Virus record (IMG/VR): IMGVR_UViG_2778261176_000002
Coordinates: 1 to 5,698 of that record
DNA length: 5,698 nt
DNA from: a virus
Taxonomy: Duplodnaviria; Heunggongvirae; Uroviricota; Caudoviricetes
Reading direction: 5' to 3' (one strand)
Shown: positions 1 through 5,698 of the stretch, in pieces
How positions within the stretch are numbered: the stretch's first letter is position 1
How the letters are laid out: each line of letters starts with the position of its first letter
Position numbers and translations under genes: made by a program
Notes under the pieces: model-generated
What the model saw: only the letters and a program-made list of their open reading frames with translations
Told to the model about the DNA's origin: nothing
Databases searched by the model: none

Positions 1-745
1 TCTCGCGCGGATTTGCAGGACTGGTGATGTTCTTGCCGAACATGCAGCCTTTCGCCGTCAGCGACCAGAATTTTTTGATGTTGTTAATCGCGGTACGGCT
101 GTATCGTTCGCGCTGCTCGACGATCCCCAGCTTCACCATCTGGTGATATGCCTGATTAGCCGTAAGGCGGATACCATACTGTTTCAGCAGTGCACTCAGC
201 GACAGCGTAGGGCGACTTGAGCCATCAGGCGCGTCAGCAGGAGCATCAATGGCATAGCGCGGTGCCAGATTCGGTAAGCCAACAGCCTCCTGGAGTTTCT
301 GACAGGCACCAAGCACTGAAGAGTTAGACAGGTTTAATTCCCGGCGCATAAAGTCCAGCAGAATCACACCAGCCTGCATCTTGTCAGCAGCCTGCCCGGA
401 TAATTTTTCCGGTGCGCTGGTTACCATATCGAAAGTACGGATCACCTTCAGATGGAATGCCGGGCTGATCCACATTGTATAGGCATACACCAGTTCCTTG
501 CAGACATACGTTCCCCGTTCATTTCCCCCATGAATCACACTCACCGGGTCAACACCCAAATTCTGGGTGTTGGTCAATTCATGAACAAGCTCAACAGTTT
601 GTTGGCTGGAAAGAAACTTTCCTGGCTCCTTGGTTCTGGCATTTGCACCAGATGCTACTGCTGCGCGATGCAGATCGTTCAGGCTGTAACGCCCATAAGC
701 ATCACGACGAACTTCAATACCATCAATGACCATCAGATTATTCAT
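1..745 (-). CDS. KilA-N domain protein (antirepressor/Bro-like); partial, C-terminus lies beyond the left window edge
   Basis: Hand-translated minus-strand frame starting at ATG 745-743 (MNNLMVIDGIEVRRDAYGRYSLNDLHRAAVASGANARTKEPGKFLSSQQTVELVHELT...GTYVCKELVYAYTMWISPAFHLKVIRTFD...) is open to position 1. The N-terminal ~110 aa fit the KilA-N DNA-binding domain pattern. A GAGGAG Shine-Dalgarno lies 8 nt upstream of the ATG. Not in the ORF track because the frame has no stop inside the window. Confidence 0.7.
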   Translation of the reverse strand, partial: MNNLMVIDGIEVRRDAYGRYSLNDLHRAAVASGANARTKEPGKFLSSQQTVELVHELTNTQNLGVDPVSVIHGGNERGTYVCKELVYAYTMWISPAFHLKVIRTFDMVTSAPEKLSGQAADKMQAGVILLDFMRRELNLSNSSVLGACQKLQEAVGLPNLAPRYAIDAPADAPDGSSRPTLSLSALLKQYGIRLTANQAYHQMVKLGIVEQRERYSRTAINNIKKFWSLTAKGCMFGKNITSPANPRE

Positions 746-764
746 ACTTCGTTTCTCCTCTTAA

Positions 765-1154
765 TCAGGCGGCTGCACCCGCCGTTTTCTCGTACTTACT
801 GATAGTGATCTCGACCTTCCCTTCCGGGATAACCGGTCCCCACTCCACCAGCATTCTTTTCACCTGACTGTCGTCTTCCCACACACCCGCGTGGGTCAGG
901 GCGTCAAACAGCGCCTTGTTATAGTTGTCCAGATCGCGGATCCGGTTATCCGGAGGAAACAACACGATCTCCACTGAAGCAGGTGCCGACGTTGGTTTTG
1001 GCAGACGACGTAACTGCTCAACTATTGCTGCACACGCCGCGCTCTGGAATTTGCGCCCCGCCGCGCTTATCAGGCTCTTACCAGCAAACGCCCCTTTGTT
1101 GGGGTGTCGCCAGTACGTGTTCACGCTGGGCGGGAAAGGCAGGATCAGCTTCAT
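765..1154 (-). CDS. rusA: RusA-family Holliday junction resolvase (crossover junction endodeoxyribonuclease)
   Basis: 129 aa ORF MKLILPFPPSVNTYWRH...RIRDLDNYNKALFDALTHAGVWEDDSQV... shows the N-terminal PxxNxxYR-like motif and the acidic RDLDN / DAL..AG.W.DD core typical of RusA. AGGGAGA Shine-Dalgarno upstream. Its ATG (1154-1152) overlaps a TGA at 1153-1151. Confidence 0.85.
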   Translation of the reverse strand: MKLILPFPPSVNTYWRHPNKGAFAGKSLISAAGRKFQSAACAAIVEQLRRLPKPTSAPASVEIVLFPPDNRIRDLDNYNKALFDALTHAGVWEDDSQVKRMLVEWGPVIPEGKVEITISKYEKTAGAAA

Positions 1155-1222
1155 GCCACCATCTCCCTGACCAGTTTTTCTGCCTGCTGGCGAACCTGCG
1201 CCAGAAAGGCCTCACCACATGC

Positions 1223-1804
1223 CTAAAGTTCATCGCGCCCGATGTAGCTGATTGCCGGTCCCTTCCAAGTCTTGTCAAAAACAGCAATAGCACCAGCGAA
1301 GAAAGCGCCTGTCGGCACCTGCTTCTCATCTTTCGGGATAAACCAGGCAGGCAGTTCAAAACCAATACGCCCGCGAATAAAAGCAATATGATCTGCATCT
1401 TCCGGCCACCACACTTCGCTGGTGGCAGCTTTGATCAGGAAAACATAGCGCCCGCCCTTATCACGCATGGCACTGGCATGCTTCATGATGTAACGCATGC
1501 CGGTGATGTATTGCCCCTCATGCTGACTGGCGCGACTGTATGGTGGATTGCCAAAGGCAGCACCTTTAAGCTCCGCAAGGCGTTCTGACCAGTCACGCGC
1601 CAGCGCGTTGTCTTCCGCCGTGTAATACGCGGCACATTTGGCATTATCACCGTCAGTGAACAGATCCAGAACAAATGGGCCAAACAAGGTGTTAATTCCC
1701 CAGAAAATGCTGTCCGGCGTGCGCCACTGATCGCCCACCTCCTTCAGTTCATGGGATGGTTTGTTCCGCAGCTCCACCAGCGCCTGACAATATTTATTAC
1801 TCAT
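1223..1804 (-). CDS. Phage Dam-type DNA N6-adenine methyltransferase
   Basis: Same frame as track ORF 1223..1849, but started at ATG 1804 (MSNKYCQALVELRNK...) rather than the upstream GTG. Contains the N6-adenine MTase motif IV NPPY (AFGNPPYS). Ends at TAG 1225-1223. A GGGGGC Shine-Dalgarno-like stretch precedes the ATG. Confidence 0.8.
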   Translation of the reverse strand: MSNKYCQALVELRNKPSHELKEVGDQWRTPDSIFWGINTLFGPFVLDLFTDGDNAKCAAYYTAEDNALARDWSERLAELKGAAFGNPPYSRASQHEGQYITGMRYIMKHASAMRDKGGRYVFLIKAATSEVWWPEDADHIAFIRGRIGFELPAWFIPKDEKQVPTGAFFAGAIAVFDKTWKGPAISYIGRDEL

Positions 1805-1896
1805 TAAGCCCCCACGTAAAAAGCATCCGCAATGTCTCCGGAAGTACACCCCGGATGGGCTTCAATGAATTTCTGAACTTCATTCAAAAGACTCAT
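1804..1896 (-). CDS. Hypothetical 30-aa mini-protein (MSLLNEVQKFIEAHPGCTSGDIADAFYVGA)
   Basis: ATG at 1896-1894 lies 2 nt after the initiator stop (TGA 1901-1899) and is preceded by AGGGGGTGA with 5-nt spacing. Its TAA stop (1806-1804) overlaps the methyltransferase ATG as TAATG. Too short for the ORF track; coding status is inferred from coupling and the RBS only. Confidence 0.35.
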   Translation of the reverse strand: MSLLNEVQKFIEAHPGCTSGDIADAFYVGA

Positions 1897-1898
1897 GA

Positions 1899-2840
1899 TC
1901 ACCCCCTGAATCCTGCCGGGATCTGGCTGTAGTCCACGTTGTCGTAACTGGCTTTGAAGTACGGATCTTCGCGTTTTTCTGTGTACGTGCTGACGGACGG
2001 CGATAAGCGCAGGGAAAGCTCATCCCATTTTTCCCGCAGCTTCGACGGGCTGAGCACGTTACGGCACCAGAACGGATCGCGGCTGACGCGGCTGTACATC
2101 TCGCAGATTTGTTTGTGAGTACGACCATCCTGCACACACATCAGGCGAATTTCGTTTGCCCAGGCTGTCCAGTTCGGTTCTTTGGGACGAACCACCTCGC
2201 CGTCACATTCGGCAGCCTGCTCGTACAGGGCGATGATTTTTTTCCAGAGCCACTGTGCGCAGGTCAAATCATCCTGCGTTCCCCACTGGCGCTTTTTAGG
2301 GCTGAATACAACCGCATCAGGATGGCGAGTTAAAAAATCCTGTTCAGCCTTCTGCGTGTCCGGTTGCGAAGCGCCCGGACGAGAAGGTTTTTTATCTGAC
2401 GGATCATGTTTTGATTTTACTGACGGATCCCCGCCAGATTCTGACGGGTGAAAACCCGCTTTTTTGCCAGATTTCGACGCATCAAATTTTGACGGGTCAG
2501 ATTTTGATGCGTCAGATTTTGACGGGTCAGAATCTGACAGTTGAGAAAATGCCGCTGCCTGAAGCTTCGCAACGTTAAGCTGATAAACATTCGACGCATT
2601 GCGGTTACCCTGGCGACGCGCCTTACGCGTTAACCAGCCTTCTGCTTCCAGCCGTGCGATAGCCGTTCTGACGGTACTCATCCCCGCGCCAATCTGGCGG
2701 GCAATGGTTTCAATTGATGGCCAGCACACACCTTCGTCATTACTGAAATCAGCCAGGCGGGCCATAATTGCTACGCTGGATAATTTCATGCCTGACGCTG
2801 CGCAACCATCCCATACATAGCCGGTTAATTTAGTGCTCAT
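1899..2840 (-). CDS. Phage replication initiation protein (lambda O-like role): N-terminal winged-HTH, low-complexity linker, DnaT/primosome-like C-terminal domain
   Basis: 313 aa ORF. N-terminus [13 protein letters not shown]...SIETIARQIGAGMSTVRTAIARLEAEGWL reads as a wHTH. The central linker (SDSDPSKSDASKSDPSKFDASKSG...) is encoded by an iteron-like repeat array. GAGG Shine-Dalgarno 6 nt upstream of ATG 2840. Confidence 0.8.
   Translation of the reverse strand: MSTKLTGYVWDGCAASGMKLSSVAIMARLADFSNDEGVCWPSIETIARQIGAGMSTVRTAIARLEAEGWLTRKARRQGNRNASNVYQLNVAKLQAAAFSQLSDSDPSKSDASKSDPSKFDASKSGKKAGFHPSESGGDPSVKSKHDPSDKKPSRPGASQPDTQKAEQDFLTRHPDAVVFSPKKRQWGTQDDLTCAQWLWKKIIALYEQAAECDGEVVRPKEPNWTAWANEIRLMCVQDGRTHKQICEMYSRVSRDPFWCRNVLSPSKLREKWDELSLRLSPSVSTYTEKREDPYFKASYDNVDYSQIPAGFRG
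2394..2540. repeat. Iteron-like direct repeat array inside the initiator gene; putative phage origin of replication
   Basis: About eight copies of a TGACGG(G/A)TCA-type motif at ~15-16 bp periodicity. The best units are three tandem 15-mers ATTTTGA(C/T)G(G/C)GTCAG at 2486-2530, plus ATTTCGACGCATCAA at 2471-2485 and degenerate copies at 2394-2456. The core TCTGAC-GG-GTCAGA is itself a dyad. Placement inside the initiator linker mirrors ori-lambda inside gene O. Confidence 0.6.
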
Positions 2841-3009
2841 GACCGACCTCTATTTCCCTGAATTTACGACGAAACTGTTCGAGCGGACTGAAGCACTCAT
2901 GCTCATAGCCTTCGCGGAGGTAGATAACCCGTTGTGTTTCCGGCTCCCAACGAATGACTCTGACGGGCACTCCGTAGTGATCTTTGAACCAGCGGTTAAC
3001 TTGTTGCAA
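2830..3009 (-). CDS. Hypothetical small protein (59 aa, TTG start): (M)[58 protein letters not shown]
   Basis: Found by hand-translating the minus strand in the frame offset from track ORF 2850..3188. Strongly protein-like sequence. AAGGAG Shine-Dalgarno at 3023-3018 sits 8 nt upstream of TTG 3009-3007. TAA stop at 2832-2830 overlaps the initiator start by 11 nt. No ATG in this frame downstream of the TGA at 3039-3037. Confidence 0.4.
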
Positions 3010-3188
3010 AGGACTGTCTCCTTCTGCCGGTTGAAATCACCCACAGCCCACTCTGCAAAGCTGTGGGTTACAATTTCCCTGTCACCTGGTACATTCACTG
3101 CATAGCAATACTCCACCTTCGCTTTTCCACCCGGCACAGGAAGCGCAATCAGTTGCGAGCGACGGTAGTGTGTTGTTAAACTGTTCAT
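2850..3188 (-). CDS. Hypothetical protein in the frame coupled to the cII-like gene; likely genuine only in its N-terminal part (about 3188 to 3040)
   Basis: ATG 3188-3186 overlaps the cII-like stop as ATGA; GGAGAA lies ~10 nt upstream. The N-terminal ~50 aa ([52 protein letters not shown]) look protein-like. The C-terminal part (…[24 protein letters not shown]) looks like an out-of-frame read of feature 2830-3009. Confidence 0.3.
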
Positions 3189-3826
3189 GCGTTAGTTTCT
3201 CCACAACCAGAAGCAATCGACGCCACGACGCCCGGAGCTGCACACTCGCGGGCGTTACTCTTTTCCGGCGCACAAAAAACACGAAATAACAGTGTTAAAT
3301 GCTCCTGCCACTTCGCCATTACTTGGTAGCTGTTCTCTTCGATTTGCTCACGCTCAGCCTGATCAATAACTCCATCAGCAGTTGCCTTACGTAAGTACTG
3401 GGAATGCTTGCCAATCCATTCTATTGACTCCATCAGCCGCTGATTAATGTCACCATTGTCAATGTCATCAATGACCACCAGCGGCACAAACACCCCATTA
3501 CTACGACGGGCTATTGCATCCGTTACATGCCTGGTACCACTGGCATCCTGTAAAACCATGGCCCACTCGAGTGGAAAAATTTGATCCCCACCGCTACGCA
3601 GTCTGTTATGCAATTGATCTTTTGCTGGGGTGATATCATCAGATTTATACAAACCAAGAATTTCTGCTGCTTCCTCATAGCCATGAGGTAAATCAGCAAT
3701 CGTTCTTCGTATTGCTGCCACCAGCCATGCTGGCTGTTTATCAACTTTCCATTCAGGTTCTTTACCCACGTTTAAGTCCTCATATCTGTGGTTTCTGTAA
3801 ATCGATTTATCCATTAGATTTTTCAT
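3185..3826 (-). CDS. cII-like lysogeny-establishment regulator (possibly Phage_CP76 / cII-type family)
   Basis: Same frame as track ORF 3185..3883, started at ATG 3826 ([13 protein letters not shown]...); ATG 3814 is an alternative. Sits immediately after the cro-like gene, overlapping its stop, which is the cII position in lambdoid phages. The central segment [24 protein letters not shown] resembles, from memory, the conserved F-P-E-W-L-D block of CP76-type CII proteins; this was not verified by search. No good Shine-Dalgarno, so start may depend on coupling to cro. Confidence 0.55.
3190..3266 (+). ncRNA. Putative oop-like antisense RNA covering the 3' end of the cII-like gene
   Basis: Candidate sigma70 promoter on the + strand: TTGCGA (3153-3158), 18-nt spacer, TAAACT (3177-3182). 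The predicted start is near the cII-like stop and a + strand intrinsic terminator lies at 3228-3266, giving a ~75-nt transcript antisense to the last ~80 nt of the cII-like gene. This matches the lambda pO/oop arrangement. Hexamers are weak (4/6 each). Confidence 0.3.
3228..3266 (+). terminator. Rho-independent terminator-like hairpin with U-rich tail on the + strand (antisense, inside the cII-like coding region)
   Basis: Stem ACGCCCG+GAG (3228-3237) pairs with CTC+G+CGGGCGT (3245-3255) with one bulge; 7-nt loop; followed by TACTCTTTTCC. The reverse complement on the minus strand has no U tract, so the element is + strand specific. Confidence 0.4.
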
Positions 3827-4007
3827 AAAGCTCAGGTTTAAATGGCAACCGTCCGCAAGTTCTATATGCAGCCTCTGCTGCACGTCCTTTTGGAATTAAC
3901 TGGCCAGGACGGTTTCGCCACTGATAAACGGCTTCAGTTGTTATGCCGAAAAAAGCAGCAACTTTCTCAATGCTGCCGAAGTAGCTTTCGATATCGTCAG
4001 TCGTCAT
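3807..4007 (-). CDS. cro: Cro-like HTH repressor (YdaS/Cro family)
   Basis: 66 aa ORF divergent from cI. HTH segment SIEKVAAFFGITTEAVYQWRNRPGQLIPKGRAAEAAYRTCG matches the Cro/YdaS-type pattern. GGAGGG Shine-Dalgarno 4 nt upstream of ATG 4007-4005. Confidence 0.8.
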   Translation of the reverse strand: MTTDDIESYFGSIEKVAAFFGITTEAVYQWRNRPGQLIPKGRAAEAAYRTCGRLPFKPELYEKSNG

Positions 4008-4018
4008 ATGCCCTCCAA

Positions 4019-4035
4019 ACTAAGTTTTGTTAGAT
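4019..4035. promoter_or_regulatory. Operator-like dyad ACTAAGTTTTGTTAGAT (CTAA-N7-TTAG)
   Basis: 17-mer differing at only 2 positions from the site at 4797-4813 on the other side of cI. Overlaps the -10/+1 region of the candidate cro promoter. Confidence 0.5.
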
Positions 4036-4067
4036 CTTAATTATCAATCTATCTTAGGTCAATAAAA

Positions 4068-4083
4068 ACTAAGATTACTTAGT
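4068..4083. promoter_or_regulatory. Operator-like dyad ACTAAGATTACTTAGT
   Basis: Perfect 6-bp inverted arms ACTAAG / CTTAGT around a 4-bp centre; same CTAA-N7-TTAG geometry as the other sites. Lies just upstream of the candidate pR -35. Confidence 0.5.
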
Positions 4084-4104
4084 AATTAAAGAAATGGTGC
4101 TCCT

Positions 4105-4731
4105 ATGGAAACAGTTGGTCAGCGTATAAAAGCTCTGAGAAGGGTTACCAGAACGTCCCAGAAAGAATTGGGTAAATTTTGTGGAGTAAGTGACGTTGCT
4201 GTGGGGTACTGGGAGAAAGACATCAATGTCCCTGGTGGGGAAGCACTTTCAAAATTAGCGAAGTTCTTCAATACGTCAATAGATTACATTCTTTATGGTG
4301 CTGAGTTTGAAGGCAAACTCGTCACAAACATGCGCAGAGTTCCTGTAATCTCGTGGGTGCAGGCTGGGCAGTTTACTGAGTGCAGGACAGCAGAAGTGTT
4401 TAGTGAAGTAGACAAGTGGGTAGATACATCATTAAAGATTGGTGATAACTCATTTGCATTGGAGGTTAAAGGCGACTCCATGACTAACCCTAATGGCCTC
4501 CCAACAATACCAGAAGGCGCAACAGTGATTGTAGATCCTGATGCAGAACCCCGGCATGGAAAAATAGTCATCGCTAGACTTGATGGAACAAACGAAGCCA
4601 CAGTAAAAAAATTAGTTATCGATGGCCCTCAAAAGTTTTTAGTGCCATTAAATCCCCGGTACCCCAACATCCCGATCAATGGTAATTGCCTCATCATTGG
4701 TGTAGTCAAAGGAGTTCAATACGAACTCTAG
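4105..4731 (+). CDS. cI: CI-type prophage repressor: N-terminal XRE-family HTH, C-terminal S24 (LexA-like) autopeptidase domain
   Basis: 208 aa. HTH: TSQKELGKFCGVSDVAVGYWEK. Ala-Gly cleavage-site context VQAGQF. Ser nucleophile in KGDSMTNP and general-base Lys in ATVKKLV, all spaced as in LexA / lambda CI. Divergent from the cro-like gene. Confidence 0.9.
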   Translation: METVGQRIKALRRVTRTSQKELGKFCGVSDVAVGYWEKDINVPGGEALSKLAKFFNTSIDYILYGAEFEGKLVTNMRRVPVISWVQAGQFTECRTAEVFSEVDKWVDTSLKIGDNSFALEVKGDSMTNPNGLPTIPEGATVIVDPDAEPRHGKIVIARLDGTNEATVKKLVIDGPQKFLVPLNPRYPNIPINGNCLIIGVVKGVQYEL

Positions 4732-4751
4732 CTCCCCCTTTTCTCTAACCA

Positions 4752-4781
4752 AAACACCGAACTAAGAAAAGTTTGGTGTTT
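4752..4781. repeat. Inverted repeat AAACACCGAACT-aagaaa-AGTTTGGTGTTT immediately downstream of cI
   Basis: 12-bp arms with one G/T mismatch (G-U in RNA) and a 6-nt loop, 21 nt after the cI stop. Contains a CTAAG half-site. AT-rich stem and poor U-tract make it an atypical terminator; it could equally be a protein-binding dyad. Confidence 0.4.
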
Positions 4782-4785
4782 CCTC

Positions 4786-4814
4786 TTGCTATTAAAACTA
4801 AGTTAAGTTAGATT
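4786..4814 (+). promoter_or_regulatory. pL-like early promoter candidate: -35 TTGCTA, 17-bp spacer, -10 TAGATT
   Basis: Hexamers at 4786-4791 and 4809-4814 on the + strand, pointing into the gene at 4920. The spacer and -10 are overlapped by the operator-like 17-mer at 4797-4813. Confidence 0.4.
4797..4813. promoter_or_regulatory. Operator-like dyad ACTAAGTTAAGTTAGAT (oL analogue)
   Basis: 15 of 17 positions identical to the site at 4019-4035. Located downstream of cI where the lambda-type map places oL/pL. Confidence 0.5.
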
Positions 4815-4919
4815 TTATATCAAAGATAACGAACAGGCAGGACGCCCACGAAGTAGCCCGCCCGGTACGTACGAAGACCGGGATGATTCGTTAGCGGATG
4901 ATTTCAGTGGAGAGAATAG

Positions 4920-5228
4920 ATGAATGAGCAGGATTTGAAGCATGTGATCGCATTGTTGCTGGAAGACGCTAAACGTTTACAGCAGATAGAGCCAAATGCA
5001 GGCACTGAGGCCCGTATTTTGTTAGCAAAACAGGCATTAAAGACTTGCGGGGCGCAAGACCCTGATCGAACCAAGTTCATGAATTTCATGGCTAACACGA
5101 TCACCCCCCTGCCATGCAATGGAGAGAGGGTGAGCCGTGTTTATCACGACACAATGGTTAAGGCATTAAGAATCGAGCTTGATGGGCTTAGGCGTAAGAT
5201 CGTGATGAACAAAATCGTTGCCAACTAA
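4920..5228 (+). CDS. Hypothetical protein, first gene downstream of the pL-like region
   Basis: 102 aa ORF (MNEQDLKHVIALLLEDAKRLQQIEPNAGTEARILLAKQALK...VKALRIELDGLRRKIVMNKIVAN) with GGAGAG Shine-Dalgarno 5 nt upstream of the ATG. Predicted largely helical. No recognisable family and no arginine-rich N-terminus, so it does not look like lambda N. Confidence 0.6.
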   Translation: MNEQDLKHVIALLLEDAKRLQQIEPNAGTEARILLAKQALKTCGAQDPDRTKFMNFMANTITPLPCNGERVSRVYHDTMVKALRIELDGLRRKIVMNKIVAN

Positions 5229-5507
5229 GGAAGCAGACGGAAGTAAGCATGCGCTTTGTTCAAATTTGCAGACAAATATATTTGCGTCAACACCAGCACT
5301 GTTAGCAATGGAAAAAGTTTGATCAAGGATTTGTTGGCAGTTCATTGTGCTTTTGAGGATATATCCCTCTGGAATCAGTCTGCAGCAGCTATCGTCAGAC
5401 TCTTTGATTGTTTTCTGGTACAGAAAGTTAAGCATTAATTCTTCAAATTTTTTGGTCTGTTCGGCTGTTGCTTCAAACAGACGAACGTGAACATAAAACT
5501 GGTTCAT
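5166..5507 (-). CDS. Hypothetical protein, convergent with and overlapping the 3' end of the 4920-5228 gene
   Basis: Same frame as track ORF 5166..5543, started at ATG 5507 (MNQFYVHVRLFEATAEQTKKFEELMLNFLYQ...) because AAGGAA lies 6 nt upstream; ATG 5543 has only a poorly spaced GGTGG. Codon usage looks E. coli-like (CGT, CTG, GAA, CAG, AAA). No recognisable family. Confidence 0.5.
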   Translation of the reverse strand: MNQFYVHVRLFEATAEQTKKFEELMLNFLYQKTIKESDDSCCRLIPEGYILKSTMNCQQILDQTFSIANSAGVDANIFVCKFEQSACLLPSASLVGNDFVHHDLTPKPIKLDS

Positions 5508-5698
5508 TAGGTTTCCTTGCTGGCTGTGTGAGAACTCCAGCATACCACCGAGCCTGAAGTGGTGAAAAGACAGGCAATAGTTTCATTGCTGTGTGTAGTC
5601 TTGGCGCTACCAGCTTGTACCCTTGCTTCCGGCTGGTACCGTCCTTTTTACAAAACAGAGAAGAGCATCACCGGACGACGGGCTCATAACCCAATCCA

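Follow-up and report, generated by a model that had tools for sequence, protein, structure and literature searches.

An amber codon that appears to truncate the accessory dam gene of an SfV-type prophage and to strand its 3' end in front of rusA

Why should an apparent gap of 68 bp lie between a methyltransferase gene and rusA in an otherwise tightly coupled phage operon, and why should the methyltransferase frame stay open across it? The question is raised by a 5,698-nt stretch of a Caudoviricetes record in IMG/VR (IMGVR_UViG_2778261176_000002, positions 1 to 5,698), the whole of which is referred to here as the window. An initial annotation, made from the letters alone, had proposed that the methyltransferase was cut off by a recent nonsense mutation or, alternatively, that its stop codon is a readthrough site. 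The minus strand of the window carries the early genes of a lambdoid (SfV/mEp460-type) prophage as a rightward string, in the order O-like gene, 30-aa ORF, methyltransferase, rusA and KilA-N. The features of the locus are as follows.

1899 to 2840, minus strand: replication-initiator gene (O-like, HTH_36), at the head of the early gene string.
1804 to 1896, minus strand: remnant of a PerC-like gene (orf40/YfdN-like), 30 aa, whose TAA overlaps the dam ATG.
1223 to 1804, minus strand: phage dam, cut short (N-6-adenine methyltransferase, PF05869), 193 codons and TAG, deposited as MBB7334032.1.
1223 to 1225, minus strand: amber TAG at codon 194, ancestrally GAG (Glu194), with G replaced by T on the coding strand at window base 1225.
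1151 to 1222, minus strand: orphaned 3' end of dam, 23 codons (ACGEAFLAQVRQQAEKLVREMVA) with the ancestral TGA (1153-1151), encoding most of a C-terminal helix.
765 to 1154, minus strand: rusA (Holliday junction resolvase), ATG at 1154-1152, Pfam RusA 6e-15.
1163 to 1167, minus strand: GGGAG, a Shine-Dalgarno-like motif 8 nt 5' of the rusA ATG, with a presumed role in initiation.
1151 to 1154, minus strand: ATGA junction, at which relatives insert the 324-bp orf42 (LexA_DNA_bind-like, 108 aa) between dam and rusA.

The start of dam was placed at ATG 1804-1802, which has one base in common with the TAA of the preceding small ORF, and not at the upstream GTG 1849 of the ORF list. The window product then amounts to 193 aa, deposited under the name 'phage N-6-adenine-methyltransferase', and the protein restored at codon 194 amounts to 217 aa, which is the length of SfV Dam. 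The restored protein matches Pfam PF05869 with 158 bits (cutoff 28.1; E = 2.4e-46) over residues 17-198, corresponding to profile positions 2-167 of 169. The (D/N)PPY motif is present as NPPY at residues 86-89, within GNPPYS at residues 85-90; in a homologue alignment reaching 31% identity, P87, P88, Y89 and S90 never vary, and conservation of N86 is at least 90%.

Direct reading of the minus strand bears out the initial description of an in-frame TAG at the end of the methyltransferase, an open extension of 23 sense codons and a TGA that overlaps the rusA ATG in a real ATGA. The extension reads GCA TGT GGT GAG GCC TTT CTG GCG CAG GTT CGC CAG CAG GCA GAA AAA CTG GTC AGG GAG ATG GTG GCA TGA. 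A run of 23 stop-free codons is expected by chance about one time in three, as had been calculated ((61/64)^23 = 0.33), and its openness would prove nothing by itself; it is the comparative evidence that lifts the case above chance. Relatives, with which the initial annotation had called for an alignment, have a sense codon at the TAG position, followed by the same tail and the same stop, and none of the homologues was seen to end at that position with unrelated sequence after it. In a DNA alignment, SfV and cdtI have GAG there, the same 23 codons thereafter and the same TGA, giving a dam of 654 nt (217 aa). Three closed E. coli chromosomes also have an intact 654-nt dam with GAG and an ATGA overlap with rusA. 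Among 126 sampled loci, mainly IMG/VR prophage contigs, codon 194 is GAG in 124 and TAG in 2. The 69 nt 3' of the TAG correspond to the coding 3' end of the intact dam of the same haplotype (for example in L003 and L071) with zero differences.

The intact relatives with GAG and an identical tail show that the TAG is a nonsense mutation and that the gap of 68-69 nt, which had been noted as odd for such an operon, is the stranded 3' end of dam, with the original TGA retained in the ATGA overlap. One G-to-T transversion has changed Glu194 (GAG) of an accessory prophage dam to amber (TAG), and translation would end 24 codons short of the ancestral end. The first proposal of the initial annotation is thus supported, and a recent origin of the TAG is plausible because nothing else has changed in the stranded tail and only 2 contigs, L134 among them (see below), are on record for the window-type allele. 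Homologues keep a sense codon at this position, the frame continues beyond it, and the TAG is a minority derived allele nested in intact haplotypes, all of which are marks of an internal-stop pseudogene. A 57-mer containing the window-type TAG, which spans an SNP at site 612 and is valid for the window-type haplotype only, had no exact match in the complete E. coli genomes (5426), whereas pattern scans (TAG pattern in metagenome contigs, NNN pattern in genome contigs) gave no match of any kind and are uninformative.

Alternatively, the TAG might be a regulated site of readthrough or suppression, where amber suppression or near-cognate decoding yields a little full-length Dam, or yields it under certain conditions only. 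Genes with programmed readthrough and amber-suppressor-dependent phage genes resemble the window in that an open and meaningful extension follows an in-frame stop, and here the downstream frame is intact up to the ancestral coupled stop and the same TAG occurs on two haplotypes (see below). However, an intact downstream frame is expected of any recent nonsense mutation, and the stop in question is a rare allele (~1% TAG versus 98-99% GAG) that is not conserved among homologues bearing the extension. None of the deposited phage genomes examined has it: neither the window-type nor the sister-type TAG-containing 57-mer has an exact match among the 41-42 that hold the segment. The RNA around the site gave a fold z of +1.18, with 182 of 200 shuffles folding at least as well, and no stimulatory context, tRNA gene or suppressor tRNA was found in the window. 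Readthrough, the second proposal of the initial annotation, is therefore extremely improbable, and the TAG is better read as a nonsense mutation.

A sequencing or assembly artefact in a short-read draft contig, such as a chimeric path between related prophages, could also have produced the TAG or the surrounding gene order. The window is indeed a whole 5698-bp contig of an E. coli draft assembly, assemblers can be misled by the long near-identical stretches common to related prophages, and N gaps mark one TAG-bearing record (L133) as a scaffold. On the other hand, the 193-aa protein of the window is recorded on two contigs. The other one, L134 (AATJUT020000114.1, 5698 bp, from the E. coli draft assembly GCA_012846515.2), encodes the same protein and differs from the window at 4 bases (999, 1053, 1391 and 1394); the window is probably a second near-identical contig beside it, from another assembly version or a sister isolate. 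The same TAG is present in closed genomes, and the orf42-less junction is likewise known from closed genomes, so that an artefact is hardly credible. The observation is real, but not novel: it is a member of the known SfV-type phage Dam family with an ordinary amber mutation, a prophage pseudogene that involves no new mechanism.

What the lost codons contribute to the protein was examined by structure prediction and conservation. AlphaFold2 with a 51-sequence alignment (mean pLDDT 94.4, pTM 0.90) predicts a single helix over residues 190-216 with pLDDT 94-98; a shallow alignment, in which all sequences were at least 76% identical, had given pLDDT 38, and the deeper run added homologues of 31-69% identity. 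From the high pLDDT and pTM we infer packing of this helix on the core, where it would flank the methyltransferase fold as an integral part of it. E194 and G197 do not vary among homologues that are 76-88% identical (Salmonella, Cronobacter, Atlantibacter, Enterobacter and Buttiauxella), in which L193, A195, A199, F200, Q203, R205, A208 and L211 are at least 90% conserved. A search of 1.84 billion representatives gave homologues of 45-57% identity whose alignments extend through query residues 209-216. A set of 17 sequences, the most distant at 31% identity, still shows no substitution of G197 and at least 90% conservation of L193, and every member continues for 20 or more residues past position 194. 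The pN/pS ratio over 94 unique alleles is ~0.25 in the tail versus 0.10 in the core. The translated product of the window has neither the complete C-terminal helix nor the invariant Gly197, the codons of which lie 3' of the TAG. The 193-aa product would keep the catalytic core including NPPY and lose nearly all of the helix, and it is probably unstable or inactive because the predicted helix and the family-invariant Gly197 are lost. A sequence search found no solved structure of the PF05869 Dam family. In a fold search with the model (m635325699c93), the best solved matches were CAPAM/PCIF1 (6irw, 6irx and 6irv; TM 0.45-0.52, 11-13% identity), which are eukaryotic cap-specific adenosine N6-methyltransferases and not classical bacterial Dam; they are silent on the tail.

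The same TAG is found on a second haplotype, here called the sister allele, which differs from the window-type allele at 22 of 669 nt and has both orf42 and the full PerC-like gene. It is present at L006, L007, L127-L132 and L135 (for example, NZ_CP060938.1 2268881-2269534), and its 57-mer has exact matches in 16 of 1605 complete E. coli records. In many of these 16 records, with genomes of ~4.85 Mb, the allele lies at the same chromosomal position, ~1.678 Mb, which points to one clone and a few others. The 193-aa protein of the sister allele is recorded on at least 250 contigs, and the prophages that carry the allele differ in their late-regulator module, of which there are at least two kinds. 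In E. coli EC11 (NZ_CP060938.1), it is H9198_RS10860, which shares with the window the G-to-T change at the same codon and the intact downstream frame, whereas it differs by 3 amino acids in the dam segment; RefSeq/PGAP describes it as a 654-nt pseudogene with an 'internal stop'.

The persistence of the sister allele bears on the possibility that truncated Dam still works, the helix being dispensable or modulatory and the TAG allele a length variant, neutral or hypomorphic. Both the catalytic core and NPPY precede the stop, and since residue 198 is the last in the Pfam match, only ~4 residues of the curated domain are removed. The sister allele is unchanged on its many contigs and in several mosaic prophage contexts. 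Moreover, codon 194 is the only site of an internal stop in dam in the IMG/VR sample, though 75 single-base nonsense changes in 59 codons are possible. Against a working product stand the conservation of the helix and Gly197 down to 31% identity, the uniform extension of full-length homologues beyond residue 194, purifying selection on the tail, and the very high confidence with which AlphaFold sets the helix in the fold. Persistence, in turn, can be explained by clonal inheritance because many of the 16 genomes share the chromosomal position of the allele. A functional truncated Dam is accordingly regarded as unlikely, and loss of function of the 193-aa product as the probable outcome.

Each TAG haplotype has a GAG parent of its own. 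In the 3' third of dam, the nearest intact allele, L071 (GAG, direct rusA junction), is separated from L134 by two bases only, the TAG base and a private SNP (552); the window departs from L071 at two further, synonymous sites (426 and 429). In the same third, L015 (GAG, orf42 junction) differs from the common TAG type only at the TAG base. Around the TAG, the two haplotypes can be told apart by sites 543, 552, 612 and 662 and by the gene that follows dam, and the longest stretch that might be shared by recombination between the two TAG alleles is 59-68 bp. Two independent G-to-T events would be the simpler reading, and the sister TAG probably has an independent origin. A purely neutral one-off mutation does not predict the same TAG on a second haplotype.

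Recurrence might mean that loss of the Dam C-terminus is adaptive and repeatedly selected, for example as a way of shedding a costly or mutagenic extra methylase from lysogens. The identical change on two haplotypes with GAG parents is consistent with this, as is the occurrence of other decayed forms of dam, namely four further copies disrupted by 5' rearrangement in the IMG/VR sample and in-frame deletion variants (see below). However, the allele search targeted codon 194 itself, so that over-representation of this site among all nonsense alleles cannot be read from it; the pattern would be no different after conversion over a tract of up to 68 bp or at a mutational hotspot (the G adjoins a TT run), and the overall frequency is low (~1%). 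Adaptive loss is thus quite improbable. That the same amber arose at least twice because removal of the C-terminal helix was specifically favoured, through altered activity or stability or through expression conditional on amber suppression, likewise appears decidedly doubtful, the alternative being plain neutral decay. If confirmed in a full census, the same base change on two haplotypes would indicate a mutational hotspot or selection on prophage Dam.

The genes on either side of dam also differ from those of relatives. In most of these, the ATGA at the end of dam overlaps orf42 (327 nt, 108 aa, LexA_DNA_bind), which overlaps rusA by a second ATGA. In the window, orf42 is absent exactly from ATGA to ATGA (324 bp; compare L001 2643-2969). 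A direct junction of dam and rusA is seen in ~16 of the 126 sampled loci, and it occurs with intact dam in L003-L005. To judge from these junctions, gain or loss of genes such as orf42 takes place at the 4-base ATGA overlap. The PerC-like gene (164 aa) has been reduced by an in-frame deletion of 132 codons to 30 aa, with MSLLNEVQKFIEAHPGCTSGDIADAF followed directly by YVGA; phage cdtI also has no PerC-like gene. A candidate precedent for a role of orf40 or orf42 was a methyltransferase of Stx prophages that depends on a partner subunit (PMC10810198); it was rejected, since that enzyme belongs to a different family (MT-A70/DPPW). An apparent insertion between dam and orf42 in L133 was also set aside, that record being a scaffold with N gaps.

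With the TAG in place, ribosomes translating dam would stop 68 nt before the rusA start, and the ATGA coupling would be lost. As a consequence, rusA would have to start independently, presumably from its own GGGAG. A scan of positions 700-2000 for promoters and terminators gave nothing above shuffle expectation and no such site in the gap.

E. coli normally carries its own chromosomal Dam. The mutation would be tolerated because the prophage methylase is accessory and dispensable. SfIV has a replication module as in its relatives, without the methylase present in SfII and SfV (PMC3851460). Taken together, a nonsense TAG, a stranded dam 3' end, probable loss of function, self-initiation of rusA and a dispensable gene form a joint explanation that we hold to be highly probable.

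The closest well-known counterpart is the SfV type of Dam (AAL89443.1, U82619 29614-30267; also in SfII, mEp460, cdtI and several Stx2 phages), which belongs to PF05869 and is alike at ~97% DNA identity across the region. The two agree in the gene string O-like, (PerC-like), dam, (orf42), rusA and KilA-N, in all 23 C-terminal codons and in the ATGA-coupled stop, whereas the window has TAG in place of GAG at codon 194, no orf42 and only the 30-aa PerC-like remnant. SfV Dam is reported to be functional, a point that was given no weight here. E. coli FDAARGOS_1059, APEC E123 and O111:H2 12A resemble the window in the direct ATGA junction of dam and rusA, the absence of orf42 and the 'MVA' tail haplotype, but they have GAG at codon 194, a full 217-aa Dam and an intact PerC-like gene.

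Internal-stop alleles of dam are already recognised in standard annotation, as in the PGAP entry for the sister allele. The deposited 193-aa product of the window is named as a normal enzyme, and it should be flagged as truncated in the way that PGAP does for the sister allele. Beyond annotation, the finding carries little weight. A fresh nonsense mutation can reveal itself as an odd gap between the genes of an otherwise tightly coupled phage operon, and ATGA junctions are points where genes such as orf42 come and go.

Decay of dam is also seen elsewhere. Variants from E. coli and Salmonella (P0072, P0080, P0092, P0116, P0031 and P0065) have in-frame core deletions of 24-27 residues or internal duplications, which are further signs of frequent dam decay. 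In L032 of IMG/VR (~14080-14160), the dam stop has been lost by a change of ATGA to ATGG, and dam enters the next gene by a few codons, with a tail ending in REMAAWRH before a stop. Many database proteins of ~380 aa (P0034-P0048 and others) join PerC (PF06069) and Dam (PF05869), and in others Dam is linked to LexA_DNA_bind, RusA or antiterminator domains; adjacent genes that overlap seem to have been fused in these cases.
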